A DNA stretch of 64,000 bases, from contig OZ024743.1 in the NCBI GenBank assembly GCA_964016885.1, forward strand, positions 180,110,001 through 180,174,000. The letters are read 5' to 3'. The first letter of the stretch is position 1. Every line of letters starts with the position of its first letter. Both the position numbers and the translations under genes were made by a program. Shown here piece after piece: positions 1 through 48,200 of the stretch. This DNA is from Eledone cirrhosa (taxonomy: Eukaryota). Below the pieces are notes generated by a model. That model did no database searches and was not told where the DNA came from. It saw only the letters and a program-made list of their open reading frames with translations.

Positions 1-1655
1 TGGAGACGTTGAGGGGGGTCCCGCGCGAACTAGGATGCGGAAGATCCGTGTCAGCATATGCCGACGATGTCACCGTAGTGGTGTCGAACGCCAAACACAT
101 CGGCACTACACTAAGAGAATATGAAGCGGTGACAGGAGCAATGATCAACCAGGAAAAGTCAGTGGGCCTGCAGCTCGGCACCTGGAGAGGCAGGTCCATG
201 CCGTCCAACAGCGTCGCCAGGCGCTGGACGGACGGACCGGTTAAATTGCTAGGGGTCTGGTTCGGTCCAGACCTCCAGACGGACAAAAACTGGGACGAGG
301 TGACGAGCAGGGTGGCTTCTCTCACCCAGAAATGGGCCGAGAGGAAGCTATCCCTGAAAGGTCGAGCGGAGGTGGCTAACGCGTACATCGCGTCCGTCAT
401 CTACTACCGGCTGACCGTCGTACCTTGTCCTAAGCCCCGCCTGACTGCGCTGGAGCGTTTGCTCTTTCGCTTCTTGTGGAAGGGACGCGCTCCGATGGTC
501 AGGCGGTCCATCTGCTGTCAACACCCGCTACGTGGAGGGCTGGGCTTGCCGTGGCTGATGATGCGCAGACACGCGCTCAGGCTACGACATCTCCACCTCT
601 TCCTCGACGGTGATCAGGTGTGGTCGCCGTTTGCTAGACAAGTTTTTCCCCAGCTCGTCTCCTTGACGGAGCTGCAGTCCTGGGTCAAGCGAAGACCGAG
701 AGGGAGCGCTTGGAGACTGGAATGTCTTCAGGCGCTCACAGCCCTCGACCAATCGGGCAATGTGATCGGTGGAAACTCCACCTTGGCGTTCTTTAGGGGA
801 TTAGTGGAGGGGAAGAGCGACGACGTACTTGGAGAAACTCTAGGCGTCGACGAAAATCAACTAGCCAATCTCTTCGGAAGGACTTTCGGGCCGGGGCCTA
901 TGGACAACTTCCAGAAATCTCTGGCCTGGCAGTGCTACCGGGGTGCTTTGCCAGTCCGGGATAAACTTTACAGGCATGGAGGTGCCGTCAGCCGGGCATG
1001 TCCGAGATGCGCACAGGGCGACGAAACCGTCCTGCACGCACTCGTCCAGTGTCCGAGCATTGCTGACTTGTGGGTTTATGTCGAACACCTGCTGTCACGT
1101 GTAGGACGGATCCAGCTATCAGCTGAGTCCATCGTGAGGATTGCCCCGTCCTCTTCCTTTAGCGGGGAAGGGCAGGCAGTTTTTATCTGTCTGGTGGCCA
1201 TGGCGAAAGAGATAGTATGGTGGACACGTTTGAAAGGGCTGAAGACGAGCACTTACCTCTTCGGTGATGCCCTGATTAACTTTTTTAAATTTCATCTGAA
1301 AAGGAAAATCAGGGTTGAGAGGGAAGTGCTCTCTTCCCAGCATTTTGTTGAAAGATGGGTGAGAGAAGCAAGTACGGCCCGAATGAATGGGCCTTCTCTG
1401 AGTATGTGTCTGTAAATTAAAGGTGGAAAACTGGGAGAGGGCACTTGCCCTGGTGTTCAGGGCCACTGTGGTCTTTTAGTGGTCTTTCTCCACAAATGTC
1501 CCTCGGAAGTCTCCCCCCTATTGGGGAATTTTTCTTTATTTTATTTCATCCTCTGTTTTTTTTACACGCAGAAATGCCCATTTGTACCGTCCTGTATTGT
1601 CCTGTACTGTCCTTAATGTCTACTTTATGTAAACCCTTGTGATTAATAAAGAAAA

Positions 1656-1656
<1 letters not shown>
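1..1656 (+). mobile_element. Tx1/L1-clade non-LTR retrotransposon, copy A (3' part; continues left of window)
   Basis: ORF 9-1415 has RT motif YADD, KLLGV, and a C-terminal CPRC..ETVLHALVQC zinc-binding (zf-RVT-like) region. The 3' UTR ends AATAAAGAAAAC, then (ATT)n. Near-identical to 18830-20503. Confidence 0.92.
9..1415 (+). CDS. Tx1-like ORF2 C-terminal half (RT palm/thumb + zf-RVT), partial
   Basis: 468-aa open frame with SAYADD, GGLGLP and CPRC/HALVQC motifs. Confidence 0.85.
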   Translation: MRGVPRELGCGRSVSAYADDVTVVVSNAKHIGTTLREYEAVTGAMINQEKSVGLQLGTWRGRSMPSNSVARRWTDGPVKLLGVWFGPDLQTDKNWDEVTSRVASLTQKWAERKLSLKGRAEVANAYIASVIYYRLTVVPCPKPRLTALERLLFRFLWKGRAPMVRRSICCQHPLRGGLGLPWLMMRRHALRLRHLHLFLDGDQVWSPFARQVFPQLVSLTELQSWVKRRPRGSAWRLECLQALTALDQSGNVIGGNSTLAFFRGLVEGKSDDVLGETLGVDENQLANLFGRTFGPGPMDNFQKSLAWQCYRGALPVRDKLYRHGGAVSRACPRCAQGDETVLHALVQCPSIADLWVYVEHLLSRVGRIQLSAESIVRIAPSSSFSGEGQAVFICLVAMAKEIVWWTRLKGLKTSTYLFGDALINFFKFHLKRKIRVEREVLSSQHFVERWVREASTARMNGPSLSMCL

Positions 1657-1705
<49 letters not shown>

Positions 1706-1710
1706 TTATT
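1657..1710. repeat. (ATT)n microsatellite at the copy A / copy B junction
   Basis: Direct reading. Confidence 0.98.
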
Positions 1711-1916
1711 GAGTCTGAACGGACGTCTTTTTGCTCGTTCCCGTAAGTTTATTTATTTACCTGTCAAAACTTATTTATTGAATTTTTTGTTATTGTGTAA
1801 GGCATACAAGCCCTTGGACTTTACCCTGTGAAAGGGAAAGAATAATATTTGGGCCTTTTGGCCCAATAATTTAAACTCTTTTACATTTTAAAAAAATTAT
1901 CGAAAAAAAAAAAAAC

Positions 1917-3858
1917 ATGGCTAAATACCGATATGTCTGCTGTCATGTTACAACGACGGAAAAGTTGAGAGGAGTGGTACGCCGATATTAACAGAAATTG
2001 ACACAACAAACAACACCATAAACTATGTGAACAAAGACAGCAATGATAATGACACTGAGAACTCTAATGAGAGTAACAGCGACAACGAAAATACAGATAA
2101 CAAAAAAATGACAAATGCAACAACAATATCAACACCACTAACATGAAAACAAATAGCGACAACACCAACAGCAACAATACCAACTGCACCGAGAACAACG
2201 GCGGCACCAACGACAACAATGATAACAGCGACAGTGCTAACAACAACACCAACAAGATCAACGACAACAACAACAACACCCCCACGACAACAAGAACACT
2301 TTCGCTACGGCAGCAGCAAAAAAGAGGCCATGCTTCAACCTGCACCTCTCAAACAAAGATGAAAAGTTGGACCAGGCCTGGAAGCTCATCAAGCAAGAGC
2401 AAACCTGGACCAACTTAACTGTCCTGGTAGAAGCTATTGAGGCAGTGGAGCGCAAAACGGTGCTTTATAGATGCATCTCAGCACAAACCAAAAGGCAGCT
2501 TTAATTCCACAAGCAGATGTCGAAGTCGCGCTGAGGTGCATCAGAGAAGACACCCAGTACATAGCGAGAGGCAGACAGTACGGCACCATTTCGGTGCTGT
2601 TCAAGTCAGAAGCCCTCGCTATGAAACACGCTATGACGCCTTGCAAAAACAGCAAGGTCATAATGTACGCCTCCCACATGAGAAAAAGAACGGCCCGTCT
2701 CCGCATTCCTAGAATCCCACCAGGACTTGACATGTGGTGGCTTCTGGGATGTGTGATTGTGGAGGGGACGGATACAGTCCCTATAGAAGTGACCATAACG
2801 GCCAGAGAGGACTGGTCCGGTGTTGACCAGATCAGGCCCGAGAATGTGAAGACAATCCCAGACCACATCCGCCTTCAGAATGGGACTGTCATTCACATTA
2901 TGACCGAAGGCGGAAGGCCGCATTGTTTTGTTTGTGGGGAAAAAATCCATTTGCGAGCCTTCTGCCCTCAACTGCTGAAAGAGGCAAGGGGTCGAAAGGC
3001 TCCACTGCTGCCAACGCCGGCGAGAGGACCACAACCAATACCTGCACCGGAAAAACCACCAACAACAACACCAATAGAAAGACCACCACCAACATTGACC
3101 ACCCAGGGGGGAAACGAGGAAAGCTGTCAAATTCCCCCTCCACCTAAAAATACACACACCAATAAAACCTTAAACATACATACAGACACACTTACAGACA
3201 CAGGCCCCTCACCTACCAGTAGTGAAAATGAGGGAAATCCCAAATCCCCCAAAATACAAAAAAGGAAACACAAAAAGAAAAAAAAACTCAACAAAGCACA
3301 AAAGCACCCACAATAAAAAATGCAAACACCATCCACGCAAACGTCTCTCCAATAACACCAACATCAACACCACCATCACCATCACCAGAATCCCCCAAAC
3401 GCAAACAACCGAAACAGACGCAAGAACAAATATACACACAAACATCTGAAACAACAGACACCGCACTCACAACAAACACAGATACAACCGAAACAACACC
3501 ACCAAAACCATCACCACCACATGCACGCAAACAAATAAAATCACACCAACAAAACATACAAAACTTCGTGCTCGTCAGGAAGGCCAACAAGGAACTGATG
3601 GCCCTCGTAGCACGAAGTGAACATATACAAAAAGAGGGGGAAATTTTTAATTCGAGCATATTTCGCGTGCCGGAAGATTTGGTTCTGGTGCGAATGTCGC
3701 TCGACATATTCAAAGAAATACGAGACAGCTTTCCTCGGGAAGTGGGAACCCCGAACGTAAAACCCACTTCAAGACTTTTAAAGGGGTTCCCAAAAGAAAA
3801 CCCACTAACTATGCAGGTCGAACAACCCGACCTTCACAAGAGCCCGGAAGGTAAGTAA
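1917..3858 (+). pseudogene. Tx1 copy B ORF1 (Asn-rich N-terminus, RRM-like region, CCHC knuckle, Thr/Pro linker, small C-terminal domain), frameshifted
   Basis: ORF 2471-3316 contains CFVCGEKIHLRAFC; ORF 3568-3858 follows; homologous to 14707-16836. Confidence 0.8.
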
Positions 3859-3889
3859 ACCTTCATCTCTCTCTATTTAACCTGCCAAC

Positions 3890-6800
3890 ATGGCCGTATT
3901 AAGTGTAGGATGTTTAAATATTCGAGGCCTGGGATGGTCCTGGAAGCAGGGTCACCTGCTCAACGACCTCAGGTCTATAGAAATGGATGTAATTGCAGTC
4001 AGCGAGACCAGGATTTCCGACACGCGCGCTCTAGCCCCCATTTTCGACGACTATCAGATCTTTGCATCTGTTAGCCGCCGGGAATGGGAGGCGGGTTGGC
4101 AGTGCTGTTTAGGAAAGGCCTGGATCTCGAGGTAAGGTCGATCTTCCGGCACCCGGACGGGAAGTTGGTGGTCCTGGACGTGAACAATAATGAAGGTGGT
4201 GCCTTTAGACTGGTGGCCGTCTATGCCCCTACTGGGGAAGGACGGCCGGACTTCTTTAGACGCCTGGAAGCCTTTCTGGGTACGTCTCGCCCTTTATTGT
4301 TAGCGGGGGACTGGAACGGCATCTTAGACGCACGCTGGGACTGTGTGGGAGTATCCGATAGGGGGGTGCAAAAGCCAGTTCCAACTGTCTGACAGGTACC
4401 GACTAGATTTCCCTAATGCGCCAGTGTGGACCTGGGCTAACCGCATAGGGTCATCTAGATCGTATATAGACAGGATATTCATTAGAAAAAAAGACAGGAA
4501 TTGTGTAAGCTGTCAATGTTTTGAAACGGTCGCCTATTCAGATCAAAAGTTTGTGATCTGTATGATCGATCTAGATAAGACGCTTAGGTAAGGACCTGGT
4601 TACTGGAAGCTAAACATGTCATTTCCGACACGTATGGCTTACAGGGACCAGGTCAACAATTTAGTTAAGAAAAAGTTGACAGGGGGAGTCGTCAACAATA
4701 GATGGTGGGGGGCTCTCAAAAGAGAGATTAGAGTAATGTCGATAGAGTTTAGCAAAGAAGTAGCATTAGAGAAAAATAGAAAGGAGGGGGAGTTGGTAGA
4801 TAAGTTAGACGAGACTATTGGTAGTGGCATTGCAACTGATGTGCTAGCGGCGAGAATGGCATTAGACCATTTCTTCAATGCGAAACACGAAGGTTGCATT
4901 GTCAGAGCTAAGGCGCGTGCTCTAAGATACGAGGGAACCAAAGCTGTTTGATGGGCCCGCGTGGCAGAGGCGCAGCGTGGTCATAAAACCACGATTTGGT
5001 CTTTGACGGGTTGAGACAGGCAAGAGCTGAGCGATTCCAAAAGGATGTGTGAGGCCTTTCGCCAACATTTTGCTCGGTTGTTCGGGGGGAAGTGGCGGGT
5101 CAGAGATGGTGGCGGACTTCAGTCCCTACCTCAGTGGCTTGCCGCAACTCTCGACGGCTAACGCTGGGCGCTGCGAAAGGCCAATTACTTCAGCCGAGAT
5201 TCAGGATGCCATTGTAGGCTGCATGAGGCGCAAGTCACCCGGTTTGGATGGTCTGCCCTACGAGCTTTACGTAAATATGCCAGACTTGTTCTCCAATATC
5301 CTCGAAGCCCTCTACTGCAACTGGCAGCAAAACGGGAGTATTCCCAGTTCTGTGAGCTGGGGCGTAGTGACGCTGATGAGGTAAGACGAGAACAAGAGGG
5401 ACACAGTAGACAATTTCAGGCCCATAACTCTGCTCAACACAGAGTTTAAGATTTTGGCCAGGGTGTTTAGCGAAGAGGTTGGCGCTTGTTGTCGGGGATT
5501 TGGTTGGGGAGGCGCAAACTTGCGCAATCCCAACCAGGTCCATACACGACAACCTCCACCTAATGCGATACATCATAGAGAGGGTAGGGTGTAAAACTGG
5601 ATTCGGTGTGGCTCTGATCAATTTAGATCAATCGAAAGCATTCGATAGGGTCGACCATCGGTACCTGGAGGCTGTCATCAAGGCGGCTGGCTTCGGCCCC
5701 GTCTTCAGAAGCTGGATCGCTGCAATGCACAGCGGCACCTGCTCGATGGTCAAAATTAATGGCCACTTCTCGGAACCGTTTCAGGTCTCCCGATCGGTCC
5801 GTCAAGGGTGCCCTCTCTCCTCTGTTCTGTACGTATTGACTCTCGAGCCTTTACTGCGGAAGCTGGAGCTGTTGCAGGGCATCCCGCTTGAACCGGGACG
5901 CGGAAAGGCTGTGTCGGCTTATGCGGACGACATACTGTGATGGTGTAGGACACCTCAGAAATCGAGGTGGTCGGCAACTTATTGGAGGAATATGAAAGGT
6001 TGAAGGGGGCAAAACTTAACCCGGAAAAGTCAGTAGGCTTGCAACTCGGCACCTGGAGAGGCAAGTCCATGCCGCCCAACAGCGTCGTTAGGCGCTGGAC
6101 GGACGGACCGGTAAAGTTGCTAGGGGTTTGGTTCGGGCCAGACCTCCAGGTGGATAAGAATTGGGACGAGGTGACGGGCAGGGTAGTCAGTCTCACCCAG
6201 AAATGGACTGGGCTGAAGCTATCACTGAAAGGTCGGGTGGAGGTGGCGAACGCGTACATCGCGTCCGTCATCTACTACCGTCTGACTGTCGTCCCTTGCC
6301 CCCGTTCGCGCCTCGCCATTTGGAGCGACTCCTCTTCAAATTCTTGTGGAGGGGTCAGGTTCCGCTGGTGAGGCGGTCCATCAGCTGCCAGCACCCTCTA
6401 CGTGGAGGGCTGGGCATGTCGTGGCTAATGATGCGCAGGCACGCGCTGAGGCTGCGGCATCTGCAGATATTCTGCCTAAACGCTGAACAGGTGTGGTCGC
6501 CGTTTGTCAGACGGGCCTTTCCGCAGCTCGTTTCTTTGACTTGGTTGCAGTCCTGGGTCAAGAAGAGACCGAGACTGGGTGACTGGCATCTGGAATGTTG
6601 CCAGGCACTCACTGCCCTCTACCAGGCGGGCAATGCGGTCAGTGGAACTTCCACTCTCGAGTTCTATAGGGGATTAGTGGTGGGCAAGTGAGACGACGCA
6701 CTCAGAGAGGGTCTGGGAGTCAACGAAGTCGAACTAACCAGTCTGTACCGGAGGACTTTCGAGCCGGGGACGATGGATAATTTCCAAAAATTCCTCGCTT

Positions 6801-7250
6801 GGCAGTGCTACCGGGGGGCACTGCAGGTTCGAGATAAACTCTACAGGCACGGAAATGCTGTCAGACGGACCTGCCCAAGATGCGCGCAGAGCGACGAAAC
6901 CGTTCTGCACGCACTCGTCCAGTGTCCGTACATTACTGAATCGTGGAGTTGTCGCGTGTAGAACGGATCCGGCTATCGGCCGAGTCCATAGTGAAGATCG
7001 ACCCGCCGCAATTTTCCTCTGTCTGGTGGCAGTAGCGAAAGAGGTTGTATGGTGGACGAGGTTGAAAGGACTGAAGACAGACACTTTTCTCTTCGGCCAA
7101 TCCCTCATCAACCTTTTCAAGTTTCACTTGGAAAGGAAGGTGAGGGTGGAGAGAGAAGTGCTGCCCCCCAGTACATTTGCTGAAAGGTGGGTGAATGTGG
7201 CGAGAATGGCCCGTGGAGTGGGCCTACTCTGGTCATGCGGCTGTAGGTAG
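3890..7250 (+). pseudogene. Tx1 copy B ORF2 (APE-RT-zf), multiple stops and frameshifts
   Basis: ORF fragments at 3890, 4084, 4343, 4616, 5049, 5479, 5967, 6161, 6773 and 6855 are colinear with copy C ORF2. Confidence 0.9.
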
Positions 7251-7542
7251 GTAAATTTGAAGAGGAGAGGGGTGCCCTTCCAGGGTGCTCTCGAAGTGTC
7301 GGGTCGCTCAGGACTGGTGGGGTACCTGAGCGAACCCTAGGTGGTCATCCCCCCTATTGGGGAATTTTTTCTTGTCGTAATTTTCTTGTTACTTTATTGT
7401 TACCTTGTTATTGTTACTTTGTTTATTCATATTGTTTACTCGATTTTTCTGTAAAACCCCACTGTCCCAGCCGTTTGTATTGTCCCCTATATGTCGGCCC
7501 TTGTGGCCAATAAATGAAATCATTATTATTATTATTGTTATT

Positions 7543-9314
7543 TGAGTCTCAGTCATTGATGTTAGTTAACTGGAAAGTTTGTTGAAATGAATATCAAGCC
7601 ACTACCTGCAGCCTCAGATATTCAGGACGTATCGGAGTGTTCTTGCTCTTCCAAGCAACCATGCCGTTTGAAGCGTTCCAAAAAGCGTGAAGGGGCCAAT
7701 TTTCTTTAACCATCCCTGGAAATTTTTTGTGATAGTACCTAGTGCGCCTATGACAATCGGGACCACTTTGACTTCATGGCAGTTCCAAATCCTTTTTACC
7801 TCCCACTTTAAGTCCTGGTATTGGTTAATTTTCTCCCTCTCCTTCTCTTGCAATCTCGTGTCGAATGGGCAGGCCACAACCACAATCAGGCACGATCTTT
7901 TTTCCTTGTCCAAAACCACCAGGTCAGGTCTATTGTGTTCCAGTTTCTTGTGCGTCTGTATCCTAAAATCCCACAGCACCTTCACCTGATCGTTTTCTAT
8001 CACCGATTCTGGCTTATGCTCATACCACTTCTCAGATTGTGGTAAATTGTTTACTTTGCATAGGTGCCAGTGGATCACCCTGCCCATCATATCATGTCTC
8101 CAGCCCTTATAGTGAGTATGGGCTAGGCGTTTACACTCGGATACAATGTGAGCCACAGTCCCCTCTCTCCACAGATCCTGCAGTGGGCTAGCCTCCTCCT
8201 TGGAAATATGGTGTTTCAACCACTTCGTTTTGAGAGCCTGCTCTTGCGCAGCCATCAGCATTCCTTCTGTAGCCTTTTTAAGGTCTTCTCCTTTCAACCA
8301 GTTTCATGTCTGTGGATCCCTGAATTCAGGTTTCTCAAAGAAGGTACTATGAAGGGATTGTTCATGAAGGCTGCTCTTTCCTCCTTGTTATTTCCTCCTT
8401 GGACATCCCCTGGTTTATTGTCCTCTCCTTCAGTACAATTCTGAGCATTGGCTCCTTACTATCAGTCACGTATTTGTGTAGGTTGTTTTTCTACATCTGA
8501 ACACAGGCCTCTATGCTGATAAGACCTCTTCCTCCTTCAGATCTCCTTAAGTAGAGTCTATCGACATCACTCCTCTTGTGGAACATGTTGTAGATAGTCA
8601 ATAACTTCCTAGTCTTCCTATCCATTTCTTTTTGTTCAGCAACATTCCATCTCAGAATTCCCGCACTGTACCTAATAATAGACACAGCTCGGGAATTTAC
8701 TGCACTTATGGCATTCCTACTGTTCAGATGTGACTTTAATACGCTCCTTACTCTCCGAATGTATTCAGATCTTATCAATTCCTTCATTTTTTGTTCTTGG
8801 TGTCATCAGCCTCCAGGACACCCAAATACTTGTATCCTTCTTCAGTGTCAATTTCCTTTAATATCTCACCTGTTGGTACCTGGATTCCGTTACTTCTGCT
8901 CAATTTACCCCCTCTTCATGACTAGGACTCCACACTTACTAATACCAACTTGCATACAAATATCATTGCTGAAAATACGGACAGTGTCAACAAGCACATC
9001 CAACTCCTTCTCACTCTTCCCGAAGAGCTTAAGATCGTCCATGAAGAGGAGGTGATTGATGGTAAGCTCTCCCTTTCCCAACTTGTATCCTGCTCTCACT
9101 TTTCGTAATATAATGGTCAGGGGCATCAGGGCAAGGACAAACAACAGAGGGGAGAGACTATCTCCCTGGAAGATACCTCTCTTGATCTTCACGGCTGCCA
9201 AGGATTCTCCAGCTGATGTTAACTCTGTTTTCCAGGACTTCATATTTTGCCCAACAACTGTCTGATGCTATCTGCCACCTTGAAGATCTCTAAGCTTTTG
9301 GTGATCTAAGAATG
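7543..9314 (-). mobile_element. R4/Dong-like non-LTR element D1, 5'-truncated (RT 3' half + restriction-like endonuclease)
   Basis: Fragments GIFQGDSLSP, FMDDLKL, RH, NRPDLVVLD and EKINQYQDL. Colinear with 20530-22311 and flanked by (ATT)n on both sides. Confidence 0.9.
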
Positions 9315-10635
9315 ATTATTATTATTATTATTAGAGCTGCATTTATCTTGCTTTATGTTCATACGAGTTATCACCAAGTCACAACCAGTGACCTCAAGAG
9401 ACAACAAGGTCCGCCATGTTCAAGAAAGAACATACATACTCACACATGCATCTTTAGGTCTTTAGACTTGTGATGTACTTATATTAACAGAATCTTCCTT
9501 AGTATATGGGCAGTTCCAATTAGTACTATATTTTGTATTTCTCCTATATGCGGGTTTCCTGAGATTTGCGATAAGTAATCATTAGACCCCTTAGGTATCA
9601 TTCCTCGAGCGCCTACAACCACTGGTATTGTTTTAGTTCTCAATTTCCACATTTTTCCAATTTCTATCTCCAGGTCCTTGCTCAATTTTTCAAATGTTTT
9701 TATAGATACATTCTTGTCTATTGAAACGGACATATCAATTAGCAGGCATACCCTCTTTTTAAAGTCCTTCAATATTATATCAGGTCTATTTGCATCTATT
9801 TTTCGGTCTGTTTGGATGCTAAAGTTCCACAAGATTGAGATGTGTTCTTTTTCAAGTATGGGAGGTGGTTGATACTCCCACTAATTCTTTTGATGGGACA
9901 GGTCAAAATACTTACATATTATCCAATGTATGTATTTTGCAGCTCTGTCATGCCTGTTTAGGTATTCGGTTGGAGCTATAGGACTGCACATTGAAATTAT
10001 ATGGTCAATGGTCTCTGGTTGTTTTTTACACGGCATAATGGGCTGCATCCATTTTTTATTATGTTGGCTTGGTAATTTTTTGTTGGCAGACACTGATCTT
10101 GTGCTGATATAATCAGTCCTTCAGTCTCCGATTTCAGTCCAGAGGATGCCAACCACTGATCGGTTAAAGTTTTGTCAACATCAGGATTGTTAGCTCGTTC
10201 TGGGTATTTTCCATACAGAGGCTTTTCTTACCATTTCTTAGCCAGTTTCTGTAGCAGTTCTTTCTTTGCAGTTACTTTTACCTGCTTTGCATTTTCTGTG
10301 TTTTCCATTTCAGCAGTAAATGGGACTTCTGAAATTTGTAGTCCATTACTGTATCTTTGTGCATCTTTTGTTATGGAGTATGATCTTTTGATGCTTTGGT
10401 GTTCCAAAACTAGTTTGATCATCCAATCATGTGATTCCCTTAGATATGTAGATAATCCAATTGTTGCAGTTTTCAACGCAATGTCTAACTGGGTTAACCC
10501 ACGTCCTCCTTCTTTCCTAGGGAGATATATTCTATCTGTATCTGCCTTAGGGTGATGCATTCTATGCATGGTTAAGAATGTTCGAATTTTTGTATCGAGC
10601 CTACGGATCTCTGTGCTTGACCATTTGATGACATT

Positions 10636-11568
10636 TTAACTGTAGGTTACTACTGGTTTGGCAAGCGTGTTTATGGCATCGATTCTATTCCTTGCATTCA
10701 ATTCCGTTCTTAAGATTGCTCTTACTCTGCGGTAACATTCCTTCTTTATCCTTTCCCTCATTGTCGAGTGCTTGATTCCGTCTCCTTCACAAACACCTAG
10801 ATATTTGTAAGTTTCCTCTTGATCAAGTTCTCTTATCATATTCCCCCGATCAAGATTAATGTCTGAACTTTTCAGCAGCTTTCTTCTGGTGAACGTTGCT
10901 TTGGCGCATTTATCTAGTCCAAACTCCATTTTAATGTTATCACTGAACTGCTCCACAGTGGATAATAGCCCTTGCAATTGTTCATCATTTTTTGCAAATA
11001 GTTTCAGGTCATCCATGTAGAACAAGTGATTAATGGTTTTGTCATAGACTGTATATCCATGTTTTGTTTCATTGAGCATTTTACTTAATGGTATAAGTGC
11101 GATGCAGAATAAAAGCGGTGATAAAGAGTCACCCTGAAAAATTCCACAATTAATATTAACTTCTCCAGCTTCCAGTGATTTTGTTTCACTATTCAAAAGG
11201 AGTGTCGTTTTCCATGTCTTCATACTGAATGACAAAAACCTCCTGACAACGGGAGATATTTTGAAAATCTCTAAACATTTTTCAATCCAACTGTGTGGCA
11301 AACTATCGAATGCTTTTTTATAATCTATCAAAGCAATCGATAGATTTTTGTGTCTATTATGACAATCTTCCAGTATCATTTTGTTAACCAAAAGCTGATC
11401 CTTACAGCCATATGATCCTCGTTTACACATTTTCTGCTCAATGGGAAATAGGTCATTTGTTATCAGGTGGTCATATGGATATTCAGTTAGGACTGATGTT
11501 AAAATTTTATACATTGTGGTCAAGCAAGTTATCGGTCTGTAATTTTTGGGGATTGTTTGTCTCATCAT
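10636..11568 (-). pseudogene. D2 reverse transcriptase core (longest open fragment)
   Basis: 310-aa ORF with non-LTR RT motifs including YMDD and YKYLG. Confidence 0.9.
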
Positions 11569-13139: not shown

Positions 13140-13280
13140 CTTATCCGCCAAGGGGTAATCGTTTCGTGTTACCATTTCTAGGACGAGTGTCAACCAAGAC
13201 TAGAGGGGTCGTCCTCCCCTAGAGACACGGCTATTCCCCGCCGGCCACCATCCCGGTATTTCTTGGTCACGGGGTTTTCT
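13140..13280 (-). ncRNA. Candidate structured, pseudoknotted 5'-UTR RNA of D2
   Basis: Minus-strand pairings GACCAAGA/TCTTGGTT and CTAGGGG/CCCCTCTAG, with loop AGGACGA complementary to downstream TCGTCCT; also GGTAA/TTACC. Confidence 0.5.
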
Positions 13281-14269
13281 TTTTTGTTTTTTTTTAAATT
13301 GTTATTATCATGAGTGGTTCCTTAATGTGAGCATTGCGTGGCTTAAGAATGAAATTATTAATAATATAATATACTTTTTGCTGAAGTTGCCTGTTATTGT
13401 TGTTGGCTATGTCGGTGGTGGTGCTGGGGCTTTTTCTATTGTTGGTAGTGAAGGGGGGAGCCAGCAGTACCATAGTCATTGACGTTTGGTCGGTGGCCGG
13501 GTCACTAAGTCAATCTATTTATATCTTTTGTTAGCCTCTCCCTTGTCTAGTGATACCGCCACCTTCCCCTTTCTTAAGTTAACAGAAGGTAATGGGGGAA
13601 TAGTGGTGGTAGCAATGAAGGAGTGATGGCGGCGGTGACGGGATAGTGGTGGAAATGATGGATGGAGTGGTGGCGGCTGTGACTATAGTGATGGCGTTGT
13701 CGTTACTGAGTGTTGTTGAATAGACTAGTTTTGTTTGATCTGTGTATCTATGCGTTTGTCGCGTATGTTTAATATATGTGTTGACATATTTCTTAATATT
13801 TGAATTAAACATTTTGTTAAAACTTGAGACAATAATAATAGTAATTATTATTATTATGCTGAGATTGGTGGTGGTGGTGGTCAAATTGCCGTTATCTGGC
13901 TGTTGTATTTAGTGTACACAGAGAGGTGATGGGGTAGGTGGTGAATCTAGTTTCTGGTGTTGGTGAAATTGCTGTTATTTGGCTGTTCTATATAGTGTAG
14001 ACAGAGGGGGTTTTCTTCCATTTATAACCATTTTCTTTTTTGAATATAAAATGTATAATACAAAATTGAATATTTGAGCGATATAATAATATATTATGGA
14101 TCCGAATTTTTCTGAGACTTAAGTCGGATTATTTATGTATCATTTGTACTAAGAATTGTTATTTCACAATTGATTTAAATATGTTAAAAATCAAAAACTT
14201 ACGAGATCGATTTCATGACCTTCTATCCAACATGTGCGTCTTCTTCCCTTATTATTATTATTATTATTA

Positions 14270-14457
14270 GGGCAGAGGATTGGCAGTACCAGTAGAGGGT
14301 CGGACGCCATGCTTTGACGCATAGAGTTACGGTCCTTGCCATTCTGAGTTCAAATCCCGCCGAGGTTAACTTTGCCTTTCATCCTTTCGGGGTCGATAAA
14401 ATAAAGTACCAGTAATACACTGGGTTAATTGCTGGCCTTGTGCCAAAAGTAGAAACA
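14270..14457 (+). mobile_element. tRNA-derived SINE
   Basis: A-box-like TGGCAGTACCAGTAG, B-box GAGTTCAAATCCC, core GCCTTTCATCCTTTCGGGGTCGATAAAATAAAGTACCAG, (ATT)n tail; about ten copies in the window. Confidence 0.9.
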
Positions 14458-14490
<33 letters not shown>

Positions 14491-14706
14491 GAATGCTATG
14501 GTTGACGGAGGCTCGGCTCTGTAAGGTACTGTAAATTTTGAACGCTATAACAATTGTAAATTGTTTAAAACTTAGACCAACTTGTAGACAAAAAGACCCT
14601 CCTCCTCGTGAGAGGGGTCTTTCTGCCCGTTATTTGGCCCTTCGGAGTTAAATAACTGCTTATTGGGGTTTTGTACCCAATATTTATTTTAAACAAAAAA
14701 AACAAC

Positions 14707-16836
14707 ATGGCTACAAAAAAGAATTTGCATAGGTCACTCCCACTCATTCCGTCTTCTTTTTCCTCAATCGTCACTACAGCAGAGAGAAGATTGTCTCTCT
14801 CCCTCCCTTCTTTAAATGTGTCTCTCTCACTCCCTTCTCTTTCGCAAGCGACGAAAGAAAAGAAAAGTCTCGTGCAAAGCGTGCAAAGTTTCTCCACGAC
14901 GACGACGACAGCGACGAAACAGGTGTGCGGGAAATACGAAAACCCAGTTCATTCGTCTGACGTCAGGAATAATAGCAGTAGCAGCCGTAATAACAACAGC
15001 AACAGTGACAATGAAAACAACAGTAGCAGCCGCAACAGCATCACCAGCAGCATAAACAACAACAGCATTAGCAGCAGCAACACCAACAACAACCACAGCA
15101 ACAGCGGCGGAGGCAGTAGTCGTAGTACCTGCAGCAACAACAAAAGTAACAGCAGCTCTGACGACAACAACAACAACAGCAGCAAAGAAAAACCAATCTC
15201 ATTTGCAGGTATTGCGAAAAACTTGGAAACAATCCTCATAACAAACGAGGAATTAGAGGAAGCGAAGAAGATGGTGACAAATACTGGACACCGAGCAATC
15301 TGCAAGGCAGCGGAAAAATTTTTCGAAACCCAACAGCACTGTACGGTCACGTACCGTACAGTAAGTACAAAATCCCGTAGGGTGGAAAGAGCCACAGAGG
15401 CTCAAATACAAAAAGCCTTGGGGTCTGTGTGGCAGCGGAAAACGCACATCACCCGAGGAAAAAAATATGCCACCGTAGACGTACTTTTTGCCACACCCCA
15501 GGAGGCAAAGGCCCAATCCGTAGTGACCCTAAGGAGCGAGGAAATGGTGTTGGTGGGATCCTGCTGCGGGCAAAAAATTGTGAGGGTCAAACTGACCCCC
15601 CCCCCCCCCCCGGGATGGCCCCTTCTTGGATGGCCGCGTCTGTCCTCGTCGGAATCGAGGACAAAACAACTGTACTGCAAGTACAGAAAAAAGTAAGAGA
15701 AGATTGGGTCGGCACCTCCATTGAGATGCTAATCCAAACCAACCAGGAGTGCATCGAAGCTATCCCGGATGTGATAGACTTTGATAACGGCACTCAACTG
15801 CCCATAAGTGTTGAGGGAAAATGCCCTAAATGCTTTCGCTGTGGATCGAAGACTCACCTCAGGGCCTTCTGCAACGAGAAGACCCTGAGAAAGGAGAAAC
15901 CCCCCTCCTTCCGAAACCGGCTCCACGGCTACCAGCAACAGGACAAGCGGCAACCAGGAACGATAGGTCCGTGGCACCCATACCCACGCCACGGAAATCA
16001 AAAACAGCAGCAGCAGTGGAAATATTAACAACAACAACAGCAATACAAAATGCATCTGCAACAGAGACTCCAGTGCAAACATCACCAACAACAACAAGTG
16101 AAAGAGTGGAGCTGGTACCCCTCCCCGACCTCACAGAATCAGACATGGAGTGTGAGGTGGGAGAGAGATGGCAAAAGGTCGTAAGAAGGCACAAACGCAG
16201 AAGCAGCGCATCGTCGCCTTTGAAACGGGAGGAAAGAAATGAAAAAAGGGTAAAGTCTACTGCAAAGATACCCACAGCAGCAACACCACCAACACCATCA
16301 CCACCCACACTAGCACCACCATCACCACCCACACTAGCACCACCATCACCACCGGCGACAACCCCACCGCAAACAACAACTTCAACACCACCACCACAAG
16401 CACCAAACCAACATCGCAAACACAACAACAAAACACACACACCCAGCAACAACGACAAGAAAATAGCAGAACCACACCCCACCCCCATAAAAACAAATGC
16501 ACGGCAATAAATACACACAAGAAACTAATGACTTACATAATTGAACACACAGACATTTCACAACACGACTACATAATACCAGCACCAATCAAAACGCCAA
16601 CTAACATAAGACTGCTAAAAATAGCACAGAAACAATACACAAACATTAAAACGAAATTCCCCAACGCAGTTGGTGATTTCAGGGACCTAGGAGGAACTAT
16701 CAATCGAAGAGTATATTCAGACATTCTCTTAGAAGAGCCGACGACCAGCCGAAGGGACGATTCAACGGTCCCTTCACCAGACGATCAAGTGAAAAGGGAT
16801 GTAAAAACCATCCCTCCTCTACCAAAAGTACGGTAA
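14707..16836 (+). pseudogene. Tx1 copy C ORF1 (Ser/Asn-rich, RRM-like, CCHC knuckle CFRCGSKTHLRAFC, Pro/Thr linker, C-terminal domain)
   Basis: Frame breaks, one at the poly-C run 15596-15611; homologous to copy B ORF1. Confidence 0.8.
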
Positions 16837-16871
16837 GTGGTCTTTCCCATCTTTTCCACTCTATTTTAAAC

Positions 16872-19800
16872 ATGACCTCACTCAGAATAGGCAGCATAAA
16901 TGCGCGTGGCTTGGGGTCGTCATGGAAGCAGGGTCACCTGCTCAACGACCTCAGGTCACTAAACATAGATGTAGTGGCCATCAGCGAGACCAGAATCTCC
17001 GAAGCTCGGGCCTTCGCACCGATCTTCCAGCCGTCCTGGATCGGGGGGAGGAGTTGCTGTGCTTTTTCGGAGAGGTTTGGATCTCGCCATACGGGCCATC
17101 TTCCTGGACCCAGAGGGTAAGCTGGTGGTGCTGGACGTGACCAGCGGAGACGGGCAAGCTTTCAGACTAGTGGCCGACTATGCCCCGACAGGAGCAGGGC
17201 GGCCTGATTTCTTCCGGCGTCTGGAGACCTTTCTTGGAACGTCCCGCTCTTTAGTGTTAGTGGGCGACTGGAACGGGATCTTAGATGCACGCTGGGACTG
17301 TGTGGGATTAGCGGATAGGGGAGGAGGGTGCAAGAGCCTCACCAACCTGCTCAGGCGTTTTGAACTGTCTGACAGGTACCGATTGGATTTCCCGAATGCG
17401 CCAATGTGGACTTGGACAAATCGCACAGGGTCATCCAGATCATATCTAGATAGAGTATTTTGTAGGGAAATAGATAGGTCTAGTATAGGCTGTCCACAAT
17501 TCAAGATAGTCAGCTACACGGACCACAAATTCGTGATCTGTGTGCTTGACTTAGATAGGCTTCATAGACGAGGACCCGGCTACTGGAAGCTAAACGCGTC
17601 CTTACCAGCGCGCAAGGCCTACAGAGACCGGATTAGCGAACTAGTTAAGCGGGCGTTGACGGCGGCCATCGTCAACAACAAGTGGTGGTTTGCTCTGCAA
17701 AGAGCGATTAGAATAGAATCCATTAGGTTTAGTAAGGCTTTAGCAATAGAGAAAAATAGAGCAGAGGGAGAACTAGTTAGAAAATTAGACGAGGCGCTTA
17801 GCAAACGTGCTTGCGGGGAAATTGGCCCTTGACCAATTCTTCAATGCAAAGCACGAAGGCTGCGTTGTCAGAGCAAGGGTGCGTGCTCTCAGACACGAGG
17901 GGACGAAAGCCGTTCAATGGGCCCGAGTGGCGGAGGCGCATCGTGGCAACAAAGCCACGATCCGGTCTTTGGTGGACTACGACGGGCGCATGCTACTCGA
18001 TCCCGGGCAAATGTGTGAAGCTTTTCAGCGACACTTCGTTCAGCTGTTCGGGGGCAGCGGTGGGCCGGGTCGAGGGATGGACTTTAGAGTCTACCTCGAC
18101 GGACTGCCGCGGCTCTCGGCCACTGAGGCGAAGTGTTGCGAAAAGCCGATAACCGCCGCTGAAGTAAGGGAGGCAATGACTGGCTTCACAAGGGGTAAAT
18201 CGCCTGGTTTGGATGGTCTGCCCTATGAACTTTACGTACAGATGCCAGACTTGTTCGGAGGCCTCTTGGCGGACGTCTACTGCAACTGGCAACAGAACGG
18301 GAGAATTCCCAGTTCTGTGAGCCGAGGAGCGGTGGCACTGCTGAGAAAGGATCCGAACAAGGGGGATAACATAGATAATTTCCGGCCCATAAGTCTGCTA
18401 AACACAGAGTTCAAGATTTTGGCCAAGGTGCTAGCAAAGAGGTTGGCGCTTGTCGTTGGTGGTCTGGTGGGAGAGGCGCAGACATGCGCCATTCCCGACA
18501 GATCCATCCACGACAACCTCCACCTCATGCGATACATCGTAGAGAGGGTAGCTAAGGAACCTGGCACGGGTGGGTCCTTGATCAATTTAGATCAGTCGAA
18601 AGCTTTCGATAGGGTCGACCATCGTTGCCTAGCGGCAGTCCTGAGGGCGGCTGGCTTTGGGCCCGTCTTCAGAGGCTGGATCGCTGCCATGCACTGCGAC
18701 ATCTGCTCTGTGGTGAGAGTGAACGGTCACCTGTCGGAACCGTTCAACATCATGCGCTCGGTCCGCCAAGGATGTCCCCTCTCGTCCCTCTTGTACGTAT
18801 TGACTCTCGAGCCATTACTGCACAAACTGGAGACGTTGAGGGGCGTCCCGCGCGGACTAGGATGCGGAAGATCCGTGTCAGCATATGCGGACGATGTCAC
18901 CGTAGTGGTGTCGAACGCCAAACACATCGAGGCGATCGGCACTACACTAAGAGAATACGAAGCGGTGACAGGAGCAATGATCAACCGGGAAAAGTCAGTG
19001 GGACTGCAGCTCGGCACCTGGAGAGGCAGGTCCATGCCGTCCAACAGCGTCGTCGGACGCTGGACGGACGGACCGGTTAAATTGCTAGGGGTCTGGTTCG
19101 GTCCGGACCTGCAGACGGACAAAAACTGGGACGAGGTGACGAGCAGGGTGGCTTCTCTCACCCAGAAATGGGCGGAGAGGAAGCTATCCCTGAAAGGTTT
19201 AGCGGAGGTGGCTAACGCGTACATCGCGTCTGTCATCTGCTACCGCCTGACCATCGTACCTTGTCCTAAGCCTCGCCTGACTGCGCTGGAGCGTTTGCTC
19301 TTTCGCTTTTTGTGGAAGAGACGCGCTCCGATGGTCAGGCCGTCCATCTGCTGTCAACACCCGCTCCGTGGAGGGCTGGGCATGCCGTGGATGATGATGC
19401 GCAGGCACGCGCTCAGGCTACGACATCTCCACCTCTTCCTCGACGGTGATCAGGTGTGGTCGCCGTTTGCTAGACACGTATTTCCCCAGCTCGTTTCCTT
19501 GACGGAGCTGCAGTCCTGGGTCAAGCGAAGACCGAGAGGGAGCGCCTGAAGACTGGAATGTCTTCAGGCGCTCACAACACTCGACCAATCGGGCAATGTG
19601 ATCGGTGGAAACTCCACCTCGGCGTTCTATAGAGGATTAGTGGAGGGGAAGAGCGACGACGTACTTGGGGAAACTCTAGGCGTCGACGAAAATCAACTAG
19701 CCAATCTCTTCGGAAGAACTTTCGGGCCAGGGCCTATGGACAACTTCCAGAAATCTCTGGCCTGGCAGTGCTACCGAGGAGCCTTGCCAGTTCGGGATAA

Positions 19801-20251
19801 ACTCTACAGGCATGGAGGTGCCGTCAGCCGGGCATGTCCGAGATGCGCACAGGGCGACGAAACCGTCCTGCACGCACTCGTCCAGTGTCCGAAAATTGCT
19901 GACTTGTGGGTTTATGTCGAACACCTGCTGTCGCGTTTAGGACGGATCCGGCTATCATCTGAGTCCATCGTGAGAATTGCCCCGCCCTCCACCTTCAGCC
20001 GGGAAGGGCAGGCAGTTTTTATCTGTCTGTTGGCCATGGCGAAAGAGATAGTATGGTGGACACGTTTGAAAGGGCTGAAGACGAGCACTTACCTCTTCGG
20101 TGATGCTCTGATTGACTTTTTCAAATTTCATTTGAAAAGGAAAATCAGTGTAGAGAGGGAAGTGGTCTCTTCCCAGCATTTTGTTGAAAGATGGTTGAGA
20201 GAAGCAAGAATGGCCCGAGTGAATGGGCCTACTCTGAGTATATATCTGTAA
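16872..20251 (+). pseudogene. Tx1 copy C ORF2 (APE endonuclease, RT, zf-RVT)
   Basis: SINARGL, GDWN, YLDR, TDH; 580-aa RT fragment with YADD; TGA at 19547 where copy A has TGG. Confidence 0.92.
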
Positions 20252-20527
20252 ATTAAAGGTGGAAAACTGGGAGAGGGCACTTGCCTTGGTGGTCAGGGTC
20301 ATTGTGGCTTTTTACTGGGCTTTCTCCACAAATGTCCCTCCGAAGTCTCCCCTCTATTGGGGAATTTTCCATTGTTATTTTTTGTTACACCCTCTGTTTT
20401 TTGTTTTTTTACACGCAGAAATGCCCATTTGTACCGTCCTGTATTGTCCTGCACTGTCCTTAATGTCTACTTTATGTAAACCCTTGTGGTTAATAAAGAA
20501 ATCATTATTATTATTGTTGTTGTTATT

Positions 20528-23500
20528 CCTTGAATCTCAGTCATTGATGTTGGTTAACTGGAAAGTCCGTTGGAATGAATATCAAGCCACTACCTGCAGC
20601 CTCAGATATTCAGGACGTATCGGAGTGTTCTTGCTGTTCCCAGCAAGCATGCCTTTTGAAGCGTTCCAAAAAGCGTGAAGGGGCCGATTTTCTTTAACCA
20701 TCCCTGGAAACTTTTGGAGATAGTCCCCAGTGCGCCTATGACAATCGGGATCACTTTGACTTCATGGCAGTTCCAAATCCTTTTCACCTCCCACTTTAGG
20801 TCCTGGTATCGGTTAATTTTCTCCCTCTCCTTCTCTTGCACTCTCGTGTCGAAAGGGCAGGCCACATCCACAATCAGACACGATCTTTTTTCTTTGTCCA
20901 CAACCACCAGGTCAGGTCTTTTGTGTTCCAGTTTTTTGTCCGTCTGTATCCTAAAATCCCACAGCACCTTCACCTGATTGTTCTCCATCACCGCCTCTGG
21001 CCTATGCTCATACCATTTCTCAGAACGTGGTAAATTGTTTACTTTGCACAGGTGCCAGTGGATCACCCTGCCCATCACATCGTGTCTCCAGCCCTTATAG
21101 TGGGTATGGGCTAGGTGTTTACACTCGGACACAATGTAGGCCACAGTCTCCTCTCTCTCTCCACAGATCCTGCACAGTGGGCTAGCCTCCTCCTTGTAAA
21201 TATGGTGCTTCAACCACTTCGTTTCGAGGGCCTGCTCCTGCGCAGCCATTAGCATTCCTTCTGTAGCCTTTTTGAGGTTTCCTCTTCTCAACCAGTTCCA
21301 TGTCTGTGGATCTCTAAATTCAGTTTTCTCAAAGAAGGTACTATGAAGGGATTTTCCCTTAAGGCTGCTCTTCCACCTTGATGTTATTTCCTCCTTGGAC
21401 ATCCCCTGGCCTACTGTCCCCTCCTTCAGTACAGTTCTGAGCATTGGCTCCTTACTATAGGTCACGTATTTGTATAGGTTGTTTTTCTCCATCTGAACAC
21501 AGTCCTCTATGATGATAAGACCTCTTCCACCCTCAGATCTCCTTAGGTAGAGTCTATCGACATCACTCCTCTTGTGGAACATGTTGTAGATAGTCAATAG
21601 CTTCCTAGTCTTCCTATCCATTTCTTTTTGTTCAGCAACATTCCATCTCAGAATTCCCGCACTGTACCTAATAATAGACACAGCTCGGGAATTTACTGCG
21701 CTTATGGCATTTCTGCTGTTCAGATGTGACTTCAATACGCTCCTTATTCTCCGAATGTATTCAGTTCTTAACAATTCCTTCATTTTTTTGTTCTTTATGC
21801 CATCAGCCTCCAGAACGCCCAAATACTTGTATCCTTCCTCAGAGTCAATTTCCTTTATCATCTCATCTGTTGGTATCTGGATCCCGTTACTTCTGCTCAA
21901 CCTACCCCTCCTCATCACAATGACTCCACATTTACTAATACCAAACTGCATACATATATCACTGCTGAAAATACGGACAGTGTCAACAAGCACATCCAAC
22001 TCCTTCTCACTTTTCCCGAAGAGCTTAAGATCGTCCATGAAGATGAGGTGATTGATGGTAAGCTCTCCCTTTCCCAACTTGTATCCTGCTCTCACTTTTC
22101 GCAGCATAATGGTCAAGGACATCAGGGCAAGGACAAACAACAGAGGGGACAGGGTATCTCCCTGGAAGATACCTCTCTTGATCTTCACGCTTCCCAAGGA
22201 TACTCCAGTTGATGTCAACTCTGTCTCCCAGGACCCCATACTCCTGCCTAGCAACTGTCTGATGTTATCTGCCACCCTGAAGATCTCCAGGCTTGTGGTG
22301 ATCCAAGAATGAGGCACCATGTCAAATGCCTTTCTGTAGTCTATCCATCCCATGGCAAGATCAGTGTGTCTCCTCCTGCAATTCCCCATTACCATCTTAT
22401 CAATAAGTAACTGGTCCTTTGTACCACGTGACTTCTTTCGGCATCCTTTCTGTTCGTCCGGTAACAAGTTGTTTGTGTGGAGGTGATGGTAGATTTCCTC
22501 AGACACAATGCTCGTCAACAGTTTCCACATTACGGACAGACATGTGATAGGTCTATAGTTGGTAACATCATTACCCTTGATTCGGTCTTTCATTATCAGA
22601 ACTGTGGTACATTTTGTCAACCAATCTGGCACCTCACCCGACTCCAAGCAGTCATTGAACATGGCCGTCAGCTTCGGGTGGAGGGATGTTAAATTTTTAA
22701 TCCAATACCCCTGCACACCATCTGGGCCTGGTGATTTCCAGTTGGTTAGTTTTTTGGCCTGCCCCTTAAGAGTTTCAACTGTGATACTCACATCAGTTTG
22801 TTGGTGTGCCTGCTCACCGATCTCCCTCTGTACTGTCTCAATCCACCCTGCCTGGACATTATGTCTAACATCCTGCTCCCATATTCCTCTCCAGAATGTT
22901 TTAGTTTGCTCCGCCCCAGCGATCAAGTCGTTGCCTCTTTCTTTCCCCTCAAGCTGTCCAAACAGCATCTTCTGGTTGTTGTCGAACATGCGGTTCTGTT
23001 TATACTGACTGACTCTGTTCTCGTATCGCCTGATTTTTGCACTCTTTGCTACAATGCGTTGCTTCAGTTCCTCTATGATAATATTTAGCTTTTTCCTCCT
23101 AGTTTTGTACTTTATTTCCAGTCTATTTTTAGTGCCTATGTTTTTTAGTGTCCCATTCAGTAGTGACTCAAGCTTTCCTATGTCATTTCTCATTTCCCCG
23201 ATTTGCCCACTCAGTCGTTTCTTCCACCACGGCTCTGATCTTTCTTGTCTGTTGTTTCCTCTCGCTTTTATACCAAGTAGTTTCCTCACCGTATTTGCTG
23301 TTGCTTTGTGGATATTGTTGCACTGGTGAAGGCTCCTCGCCTCAAGGTATGGGATGACTTTGTTTACCTTAGCTGTTGTTTCTTTTAACTTTTTCCTGTC
23401 TACAAATCTTAGGTTCATAGGTCTCCCACTATCATTGTTCAATTCATCTACCACTAAATTTAGTATGTCAACCGAATCTTGTCCTAGCGCGTCAGCATTC

Positions 23501-23764
23501 ATCTCCTCAGTGGCCGTATCTCTGTTCCAGGTATTATTTATCTCAGTATTCAGATCATTGTCTGCTTCGGGTGGTTCCTCCGTTCTCAGGACCTCTTCAC
23601 CTTCATTTCCCACTGGCTCGCTTGTCTGGCATACTACACCCGCCATCTCCACGCCATTCTCTCTCCTCAGTTCCTCCAGTTCCAGCTCGCTTATCCACCC
23701 ATTAGTTCTTATTACCCGGCCAATTTTTGTTCATCTAATTTAAATAGACCAATCTCGTTCCAGA

Positions 23765-23766
<2 letters not shown>
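20528..23766 (-). mobile_element. R4/Dong-like element D3 (same family as D1), truncated in its N-terminal Myb-like region
   Basis: 1016-aa ORF plus upstream IWNEIGLFKLDEQKLA and IRTNGWISELELEEL; flanked by (ATT)n at both ends. Confidence 0.93.
20602..23652 (-). CDS. R4/Dong-like RT plus restriction-like endonuclease protein (uninterrupted 1016 aa, N-terminus missing)
   Basis: KSPGPDG, NYRPITC, DYRKAFD, GIFQGDTLSP, FMDD, YKYLG, CRIC..YIVSEC, RHD, RPD(x)D...EKINRYQDL. Confidence 0.9.
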   Translation of the reverse strand: MEMAGVVCQTSEPVGNEGEEVLRTEEPPEADNDLNTEINNTWNRDTATEEMNADALGQDSVDILNLVVDELNNDSGRPMNLRFVDRKKLKETTAKVNKVIPYLEARSLHQCNNIHKATANTVRKLLGIKARGNNRQERSEPWWKKRLSGQIGEMRNDIGKLESLLNGTLKNIGTKNRLEIKYKTRRKKLNIIIEELKQRIVAKSAKIRRYENRVSQYKQNRMFDNNQKMLFGQLEGKERGNDLIAGAEQTKTFWRGIWEQDVRHNVQAGWIETVQREIGEQAHQQTDVSITVETLKGQAKKLTNWKSPGPDGVQGYWIKNLTSLHPKLTAMFNDCLESGEVPDWLTKCTTVLIMKDRIKGNDVTNYRPITCLSVMWKLLTSIVSEEIYHHLHTNNLLPDEQKGCRKKSRGTKDQLLIDKMVMGNCRRRHTDLAMGWIDYRKAFDMVPHSWITTSLEIFRVADNIRQLLGRSMGSWETELTSTGVSLGSVKIKRGIFQGDTLSPLLFVLALMSLTIMLRKVRAGYKLGKGELTINHLIFMDDLKLFGKSEKELDVLVDTVRIFSSDICMQFGISKCGVIVMRRGRLSRSNGIQIPTDEMIKEIDSEEGYKYLGVLEADGIKNKKMKELLRTEYIRRIRSVLKSHLNSRNAISAVNSRAVSIIRYSAGILRWNVAEQKEMDRKTRKLLTIYNMFHKRSDVDRLYLRRSEGGRGLIIIEDCVQMEKNNLYKYVTYSKEPMLRTVLKEGTVGQGMSKEEITSRWKSSLKGKSLHSTFFEKTEFRDPQTWNWLRRGNLKKATEGMLMAAQEQALETKWLKHHIYKEEASPLCRICGEREETVAYIVSECKHLAHTHYKGWRHDVMGRVIHWHLCKVNNLPRSEKWYEHRPEAVMENNQVKVLWDFRIQTDKKLEHKRPDLVVVDKEKRSCLIVDVACPFDTRVQEKEREKINRYQDLKWEVKRIWNCHEVKVIPIVIGALGTISKSFQGWLKKIGPFTLFGTLQKACLLGTARTLRYVLNI

Positions 23767-23822
<56 letters not shown>
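23767..23822. repeat. (ATT)n microsatellite, right boundary of the retrotransposon stack
   Basis: Direct reading. Confidence 0.98.
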
Positions 23823-23823: not shown

Positions 23824-24300
23824 CCTGAAAAATCGTGACAAAGGGCCTTATCAAACGTAAACATCTCAAATTGATCCGGCCGGATCACAAGGCTGACCAA
23901 CACATCAGGCAGATGTTATGAAATCAATGTGTTTGTGGTCGACAGCTGGTATTTGCGATCGTTTTCTTTCGGCCATGACTATATTTCAGGTAGAGAGCTT
24001 GGCTTTACACCTACCATGAATTTTATGACAGATTGCTGAGGCCGGAACATTTCTGCATTTCTTGCATGCAATTCATCCTCTTGCCATCCACCACTCATGA
24101 AGACGACCCTGAGATGCTTGAATTTCTTCACCTGCTGTAGAGTAACCTCGCTCCAATGCAGAAATCGATCGAATGATTGTTGTTCAAATACAGTGGATAA
24201 ATGTCAAATGCAGTCACTTGATTCGCAGTCCTGTGATATACAACTGCTTGTGAATCAATTACAAGATAGAATAGACATCATTTTGATTATCTTGTCATAT
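23823..24300 (-). mobile_element. Old RTE-like LINE 3' fragment
   Basis: Minus-strand VTLQQVKKFKHLRVVFMSGGWQEDEL resembles the RTE 'EQV..FKYLG' block. It shares CAAATTGATCCGGCCGGAT with the RTE ends at 38330-38735. Confidence 0.55.
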
Positions 24301-24559
24301 ACCCACCTAAACAGAAAATATGTATCTGTAGATACTAGAAACCGTTTGAAGAATACATTCTAATCTAACGTATCACAGACCATCTTGTTAGGGCTGTAAT
24401 TCAAACATAAATAAAGAAACGAATATAATACAGTACGATATGAGAAGCATTTTAAATGAGGTAAAGAACCAAGTCCTTATCCTAATTGTGAGTAAAGTAG
24501 TTTTCCTCAGATATTCCTACGGATTTCAATACGAGCAATAATTCATCCTTCAATGTTGC

Positions 24560-47859: not shown

Positions 47860-48200
47860 ATCTAAAGTGTTATTCGGAATTGTTTTCCCAAAATATTCAT
47901 CTACAAAGCTTTAGCTGTTTAGTATCAGTTTTATATTCATGGGGTTGCATTGTGATTACAACAGTTAAAGCTGTGATAATTATGCCTTTATAATATAATT
48001 GTTCTTGGTAAATATTACTCCGATTTTTCAAGTAGTATGGTGTGATTTTTTTAGGGAGATTTGCATGCTATGTCAAGCAGATCAAGTGTCCCCGTAAACG
48101 ATGTGGGTCTCTATTAAATGGAGGTTTAACTCAGAACATGATGTTACATAACAACATACGACGATGCTAAGTAATATTCTCCACTATATATGTATATATT

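Follow-up and report, generated by a model that had tools for sequence, protein, structure and literature searches.

Tx1-like and R4/Dong-like retrotransposons occupy opposite strands of an ATT microsatellite in the genome of Eledone cirrhosa

The window analyzed here is a 64,000-nt stretch of contig OZ024743.1 of Eledone cirrhosa (assembly GCA_964016885.1, positions 180,110,001 to 180,174,000). Its positions 1-23822 are made up of a stack of Tx1-like elements on the plus strand and R4/Dong-like elements on the minus strand, together with a SINE. Annotation based on direct reading, self-comparison and Pfam gave the following features.

1..1656, plus strand: 3' part of Tx1C, a Tx1-like LINE, with the end of the RT and zf-RVT; 93% identity to Tx1A
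1657..1710, plus strand: (ATT)n, tail of Tx1C and 5' junction of Tx1B
1711..7521, plus strand: full-length Tx1B with broken frames, a CCHC knuckle in ORF1 and a 3' CUUGU hairpin
7522..7543, plus strand: (ATT)n, where the tails of Tx1B and R4A meet
7544..9314, minus strand: R4A, a 5'-truncated R4/Dong-like element, 91% to 20528-23766, with a restriction-like endonuclease (RLE) motif
9315..9332, plus strand: (ATT)6, 5' junction of the truncated R4A and tail of R4B
9333..14248, minus strand: near full-length R4B, frame broken, with an internal ATT tract at 13844
14249..14268, plus strand: (ATT)n, 5' junction of R4B and 5' junction of the SINE
14269..14457, plus strand: SINE of 189 bp with a 3' CUUGU hairpin
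14458..14490, plus strand: (ATT)11, tail of the SINE and 5' junction of Tx1A
14491..20503, plus strand: full-length Tx1A, a broken copy, with a CCHC knuckle in ORF1 and APE, RT and zf-RVT in ORF2
20504..20527, plus strand: ATT/GTT tract, where the tails of Tx1A and R4A meet
20528..23766, minus strand: 5'-truncated R4A with an open frame of 1042 aa, RT and restriction-like endonuclease motif
23767..23822, plus strand: (ATT)18, 5' junction of R4A and end of the stack, followed by DNA of single-copy depth
51706..52140, plus strand: second small stack of a Tx1B 3' fragment and two SINEs

The element order in 1-23822 is thus Tx1C 3' part (+), Tx1B (+), R4A (-), R4B (-), SINE (+), Tx1A (+) and R4A (-), with ATT after each, and perfect tracts of (ATT)3 or longer make up 0.9% of this sequence. 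The first-pass annotation had placed seven ATT tracts exactly at element junctions, and all seven were verified there; an eighth tract (13844-13855) lies inside the R4B 5' region and is present again in an upstream R4B copy. The element classes it had recognized, namely two Tx1 subfamilies, two R4/Dong families and one SINE, were confirmed, but the window has three Tx1 5' types, since the first element, which begins outside the window, carries a third one, Tx1C, whose 5' head is found 4.25 kb before the window begins (stretch L061). Comparison of neighbouring stretches showed that the stack, taken to be at least 24 kb long, extends ~27 kb upstream of the window start and reaches ~51 kb, spanning 180.083-180.134 Mb, with six Tx1-like elements, all on the plus strand, five R4/Dong-like elements, all on the minus strand, and three SINEs or SINE fragments at tracts. 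Same-family copies within the stack are 88-93% identical (R4A 91%, Tx1 88-93%). The claim that no element interrupts the body of another holds inside the window but fails upstream, where two reverse-oriented SINEs lie inside an R4B body and a Tx1 body, with duplications of 15 and 17 bp that start with ATTAT. The persistence of these SINEs within the bodies of other elements led us to rule out random insertion with later purging. Beyond the last tract, the DNA at 23829-24869 has single-copy depth in three sequencing runs.

ORF2 of the Tx1-like elements contains the Pfam domains Exo_endo_phos, RVT_1 and zf-RVT and is closest to L1 among solved proteins (L1 ORF2p E=4e-53 vs R2 E=5e-21), with its APE catalytic residues aligning with those of L1 EN; an open ORF2 is found in 19 of 29 best-hit Tx1A relatives. 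Pfam returned no match for ORF1, in which the CCHC knuckle was read directly and for which ESM Atlas CCHC/RRM clusters (0.90-0.93) serve as a lead only. An ORF1 of the RRM plus CCHC type, not Transposase_22, is tied to Tx1 in non-mammalian animals in the available part of PMC5203782. In a quick RT tree, which contained no Repbase references and no vertebrate L1, Tx1A, Tx1B and Tx1C formed one clade (support 100; RT identities of 75% and 97%) and grouped with elements from turtles and fish (support 93), as part of a radiation of animal L1-group elements, one protein of which bears the automatic name TX1. The Tx1 subfamilies are therefore sisters, which rules out the earlier idea that several Tx1 lineages converged independently on ATT and points to one ATT lineage. 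Public assemblies contain multi-copy relatives (proteins P0003-P0031; 40-47% identity) that form the sister clade; a metagenome scan for the flanks of distant relatives yielded no confirmed locus. Tx1A and Tx1C, 97% identical in RT, have different heads and ORF1s (~48%; L061:5753-7950 vs window 14491-16870), and a Tx1C head is also found in front of a Tx1B 3' end (L344), suggesting 5' module exchange.

R4A and R4B, which share ~43% protein identity, both have an RT and a C-terminal PD-(D/E)xK motif and no APE, with R2 proteins as their best solved relatives, and in the longer R4A copy of the window a zinc-knuckle His is replaced by Tyr. An N-terminal Myb-like domain and a 5' HDV-like ribozyme are described for the R4/Dong clade in the available parts of PMC7998251 and PMC3774820. 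A more distant third R4-like element (~32% to R4A) lies 46-50 kb upstream of the window (L065:1-4029).

Since five of the seven ATT tracts in the window serve as an element's 3' tail as well, the window alone is unable to show targeting, and copies were therefore sampled across the 3.0-Gb genome. For Tx1A, the sample comprised the first 53 copies by position (two unresolved) among 3,582 exact 3'-end motif matches, and a 5' junction was counted when at least 9 nt of ATT lay within 30 nt of it. In this position-ordered sample, ATT was present at all 31 5' junctions of full-length copies and at 7 of the 20 of truncated copies (p=3e-14), against a background rate of 0.24% (96/40,550 positions). 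Combined, 38 of the 51 resolved Tx1A junctions have ATT, exceeding the >20%-of-flanks criterion in the available part of PMC4494074. Both the ATT enrichment at 5' junctions that the first-pass annotation had proposed to look for and the ATT specificity it had ascribed to the Tx1 elements are thus borne out. Among the 13 truncated junctions without ATT, five abut a reverse R4 body and are probably deletions, two have (CTT)n or (ACT)n, and six are unexplained. The full-length pair L251/L252 is one duplicated unit rather than two independent sites.

At L219, L231, L237, L242 and L246, a truncated reverse R4A meets a truncated Tx1 head to head without ATT; such joints at times have short shared letters and possibly reflect deletions during R4 5' joining. 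Some Tx1 copies lie at (CTT)n, which is the Koshi target (window 51647-51705; L199, L206 and L228), and others at (ACT)n (L195, L345 and L346).

In the best-hit sets, ATT was found at the 5' junctions of 10/10 Tx1A and 29/29 Tx1B copies, the latter with varied upstream flanks, and AAT on the sense strand at those of 19/21 truncated R4A and 22/29 R4B copies; in most of the R4B copies that lack it there, GAA repeats separate the tract from the head. The opposite-strand repeat was found at one truncated R4A junction and at none of the Tx1A, Tx1B and R4B junctions in these sets. A stricter criterion lowers the counts to 25/29 for Tx1B and 15/29 for R4B. As a control, an RTE family from the same window had ATT at 0/29 5' junctions and TA at 10/29, which indicates that the ATT association is family-specific and rules out a generic ATT background as the explanation. 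Polarity over all tracts was likewise consistent (Tx1 264/264, R4A 128/131, R4B 77/78, SINE 113/117) in a tally that includes self-tails, and the 5' junction counts alone were taken as evidence. A position-ordered Tx1B sample (first 30 of 1,201) was left uncounted, ~21 of its copies extending past the extracted locus, and no sibling lineage with a non-ATT tail was found among 157 ends (133 ATT, 15 without the motif). These data indicate that the Tx1-like elements have ATT as a target and not as a tail alone. The Tx1-like elements and the SINE have ATT on their sense strand and the R4-like elements AAT, with each of the two clades using a different strand of the repeat. The target is indeed common to Tx1-like and R4/Dong elements, as first supposed, the 5' junctions of both lying in the repeat genome-wide, and the suggestion that each insertion leaves target on both sides, making the array self-renewing, is also supported.

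At the R4B heads of L157, L172, L175 and L184, a long (GAA)n separates the AAT tract from the head, as if head slippage makes a new microsatellite. The RTE-type LINE (window 48200-49680, minus strand; L287-L315) often has its 5' junctions in (TA)n, giving this genome a second family that seeks microsatellites.

At least 77,047 exact matches to the 3' end of the SINE were counted in the genome. ARAGORN and Rfam returned nothing meaningful for the SINE. It may resemble MetaSINE, in which a 66-bp Meta domain follows a tRNA head. Among its first 30 matches, duplications mostly begin directly after the element end, in ordinary DNA. Over all loci, a non-simple duplication of at least 10 bp was found in 27 of 126 copies, and 27/27 of these start with ATTA and 25/27 with ATTAT (mode 16 bp, range 11-24 bp). 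The minimal site observed for the SINE is a pentamer rather than a long microsatellite. Dispersed SINEs are found at ATTAT and lack the long tracts of full-length Tx1; a different LINE may thus be the carrier, or another mechanism may be at work. The base at -1 of the duplication is C in 19 of 24 cases against a background of 21% (p=2e-9), a preference measured on the SINE only and after three insertions at the end of another SINE had been dropped from the 27. As the -1 base is outside the primer in target-primed reverse transcription, this preference would point to protein rather than pairing. Duplications starting with ATTAT were also found at truncated Tx1 copies (15 bp at L106 and 7 bp at L078), and no duplication of ~15 bp was seen at the Tx1 copies L218 and L332. 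In the second small stack (51706-52140), the two SINEs are separated by a repeated ATT-started duplication of 15-16 bp. A truncated R4A at L151 has a duplication of 28 bp, longer than the others seen.

The 3' ends of Tx1A, Tx1B and the SINE share a CUUGU loop on different but pairing stems (AACC/GGUU, GGCC/GGCC and UGGC/GCCA). With a search pattern that fixed the loop and tail and left the stems free, 224-228 of 234 ends retained the inner three pairs, and both arms of the stem showed changes. The stability of the hairpin does not exceed that of shuffles (z -1.4 to +0.2), and the hairpin is absent from the lowest-energy fold of the Tx1B and Tx1C ends in the window. This shared compensated hairpin suggests that Tx1 is the likely carrier of the SINE. 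In stringent SINE/LINE pairs such as UnaSINE/UnaL2 and maize ZmSINE2/LINE1-1_ZM, described in the available part of PMC3747384, a 3' end with a compensated stem-loop is likewise in common, whereas the part common to the SINE and Tx1 here is only ~35 nt. Partner LINEs of MetaSINEs are given as unknown in the accessible text of PMC4824008, and SINEU has the same target as Tx1-Mar according to the part of PMC4494074 at hand. If true, the pairing would be one of a Tx1 and a SINE with a common 3' tail, and the part of the SINE/LINE pair table of PMC3747384 available to us has no Tx1 partner.

We consider it probable that the Tx1-like and R4/Dong-like elements of the stack, which lie in ATT repeats in fixed opposite orientations, came together by successive insertions leaving ATT on both sides, with the Tx1 APE nicking the AAT strand, the AUU tail priming, and R4 nicking the other strand. 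Following the logic of target-primed reverse transcription, the APE nick in the AAT strand would fall at about 5'-ATAAT^R-3', the RNA would pair through its AUU tail with the freed 3' end and so prime cDNA, and the restriction-like endonuclease of R4 would nick the other strand, after which target duplication and tail would restore ATT at both ends. Specificity is probably divided between the endonuclease, which would read a short motif, and tail pairing, by which the LINE would favour long tracts, and the SINE probably borrows the Tx1 enzyme via its hairpin. It is unlikely that the endonuclease is loose and that site choice is left entirely to the AUU tail, which would pair with nicked DNA and prime reverse transcription. 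Tail and target are the same in Tx1, the SINE and R4, and a tail-target correlation is described for RTE elements in the available part of PMC6007223; however, the C at -1 in 19/24 SINE sites is outside the primer strand and mismatches the last base of the SINE.

The ATT before full-length Tx1 copies might instead be largely RNA-borne, from transcripts starting in the upstream tract, in which case the figure of 100% would overstate targeting. The difference between full-length (31/31) and truncated (7/20) copies fits this explanation, as do L218, L228 and L332, which have long 5' tracts and just 3-6 nt of ATT on the 3' side. We regard it as very unlikely, since truncated copies cannot carry the head and yet have ATT far above the 0.24% background, and the ATT-started duplication at L106 is clean; RNA-borne ATT heads may be a contributor, though not the sole cause. 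An origin of the array in tandem duplication or misassembly, in place of separate insertions, can hardly be credited: same-truncation repeated units do occur elsewhere (L251/L252 99% and L164/L166 99.8% identical) and no read or contig spanning the array was found in short-contig assemblies of one sample and RAD-seq runs, yet the stack copies differ in sequence (R4A 91%, Tx1 88-93%), truncations and internal deletions, two of them have private SINE insertions, and junctions of the same types are found again on many contigs.

Beyond successive insertion into ATT, we tentatively propose, leaning slightly to the side of doubt, that a Tx1 lineage not yet described holds its RNA through the CUUGU hairpin, that its APE cuts a Y^ATTAT pentamer and that it carries the dominant SINE of the genome, so that, with Dong on the other strand, three element types would make landing pads for each other and build 50-kb arrays. 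Several components of this arrangement are already known, including Dong on (TAA)n, microsatellite-targeting Tx1 elements and opposite-polarity co-arrays (SART/TRAS). Dong, of the R4 clade, has the same RT and C-terminal restriction-like endonuclease and a (TAA)n sense-strand target, reported for the majority of insects, mollusks and cnidarians in the available part of PMC7998251, and nothing notable differs here except the interleaving with APE elements. In Octopus vulgaris, Dong-R4 has the highest numbers among the recently active LINE types, and the repeat annotation in the available part of PMC13282606 has active L1-Tx1 and Dong-R4 without the word 'target'. For Tx1, the accessible sections of PMC4494074 give TC (Kibi), TTC (Koshi) and crocodilian TTCC/TTTC as microsatellite targets. 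Telomeric repeats are known as Tx1 targets too. The elements described here are likewise Tx1-clade APE elements targeting microsatellites, but in place of (TC)n or (TTC)n it is (ATT)n that dominates, with (CTT)n just occasional (CTT or ACT at 2/20 truncated junctions), and they have an ATT tail with a 3' hairpin. In Bombyx, two families, SART and TRAS, insert into one repeat in opposite orientations and form arrays (PMC10088271, available part), both being R1-clade APE elements at telomeres, whereas here two endonuclease classes meet at a dispersed microsatellite.

Our literature search found no ATT-specific Tx1 element; it was made without Repbase, which may already list these families as such. 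ATT appears to be a new target of Tx1-type elements. It would join the list of Tx1 targets, and a SINE present in at least 77,000 copies would gain a likely carrier. A microsatellite divided by strand between two endonuclease classes would also explain large repeat stacks in the genome. In addition, the Tx1 family is young and has many copies with an open ORF2, which makes site choice by endonuclease versus RNA tail directly testable.

Other arrays and repeats were observed as well. Tandem Tx1A arrays and Tx1A-R4B units repeated with an identical truncation, 99% alike, lie at L249-L253 (C1:55.42-55.46 Mb), L182/L183 and L164/L166, suggesting that arrays also grow by duplication or co-mobilization. 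Elsewhere in the window, positions 33069-35246 and 54691-56169 hold degraded RT elements that are presumably Penelope-like by their looks, the latter having no match in Pfam, and several long inverted repeats lie at 26-36 kb.
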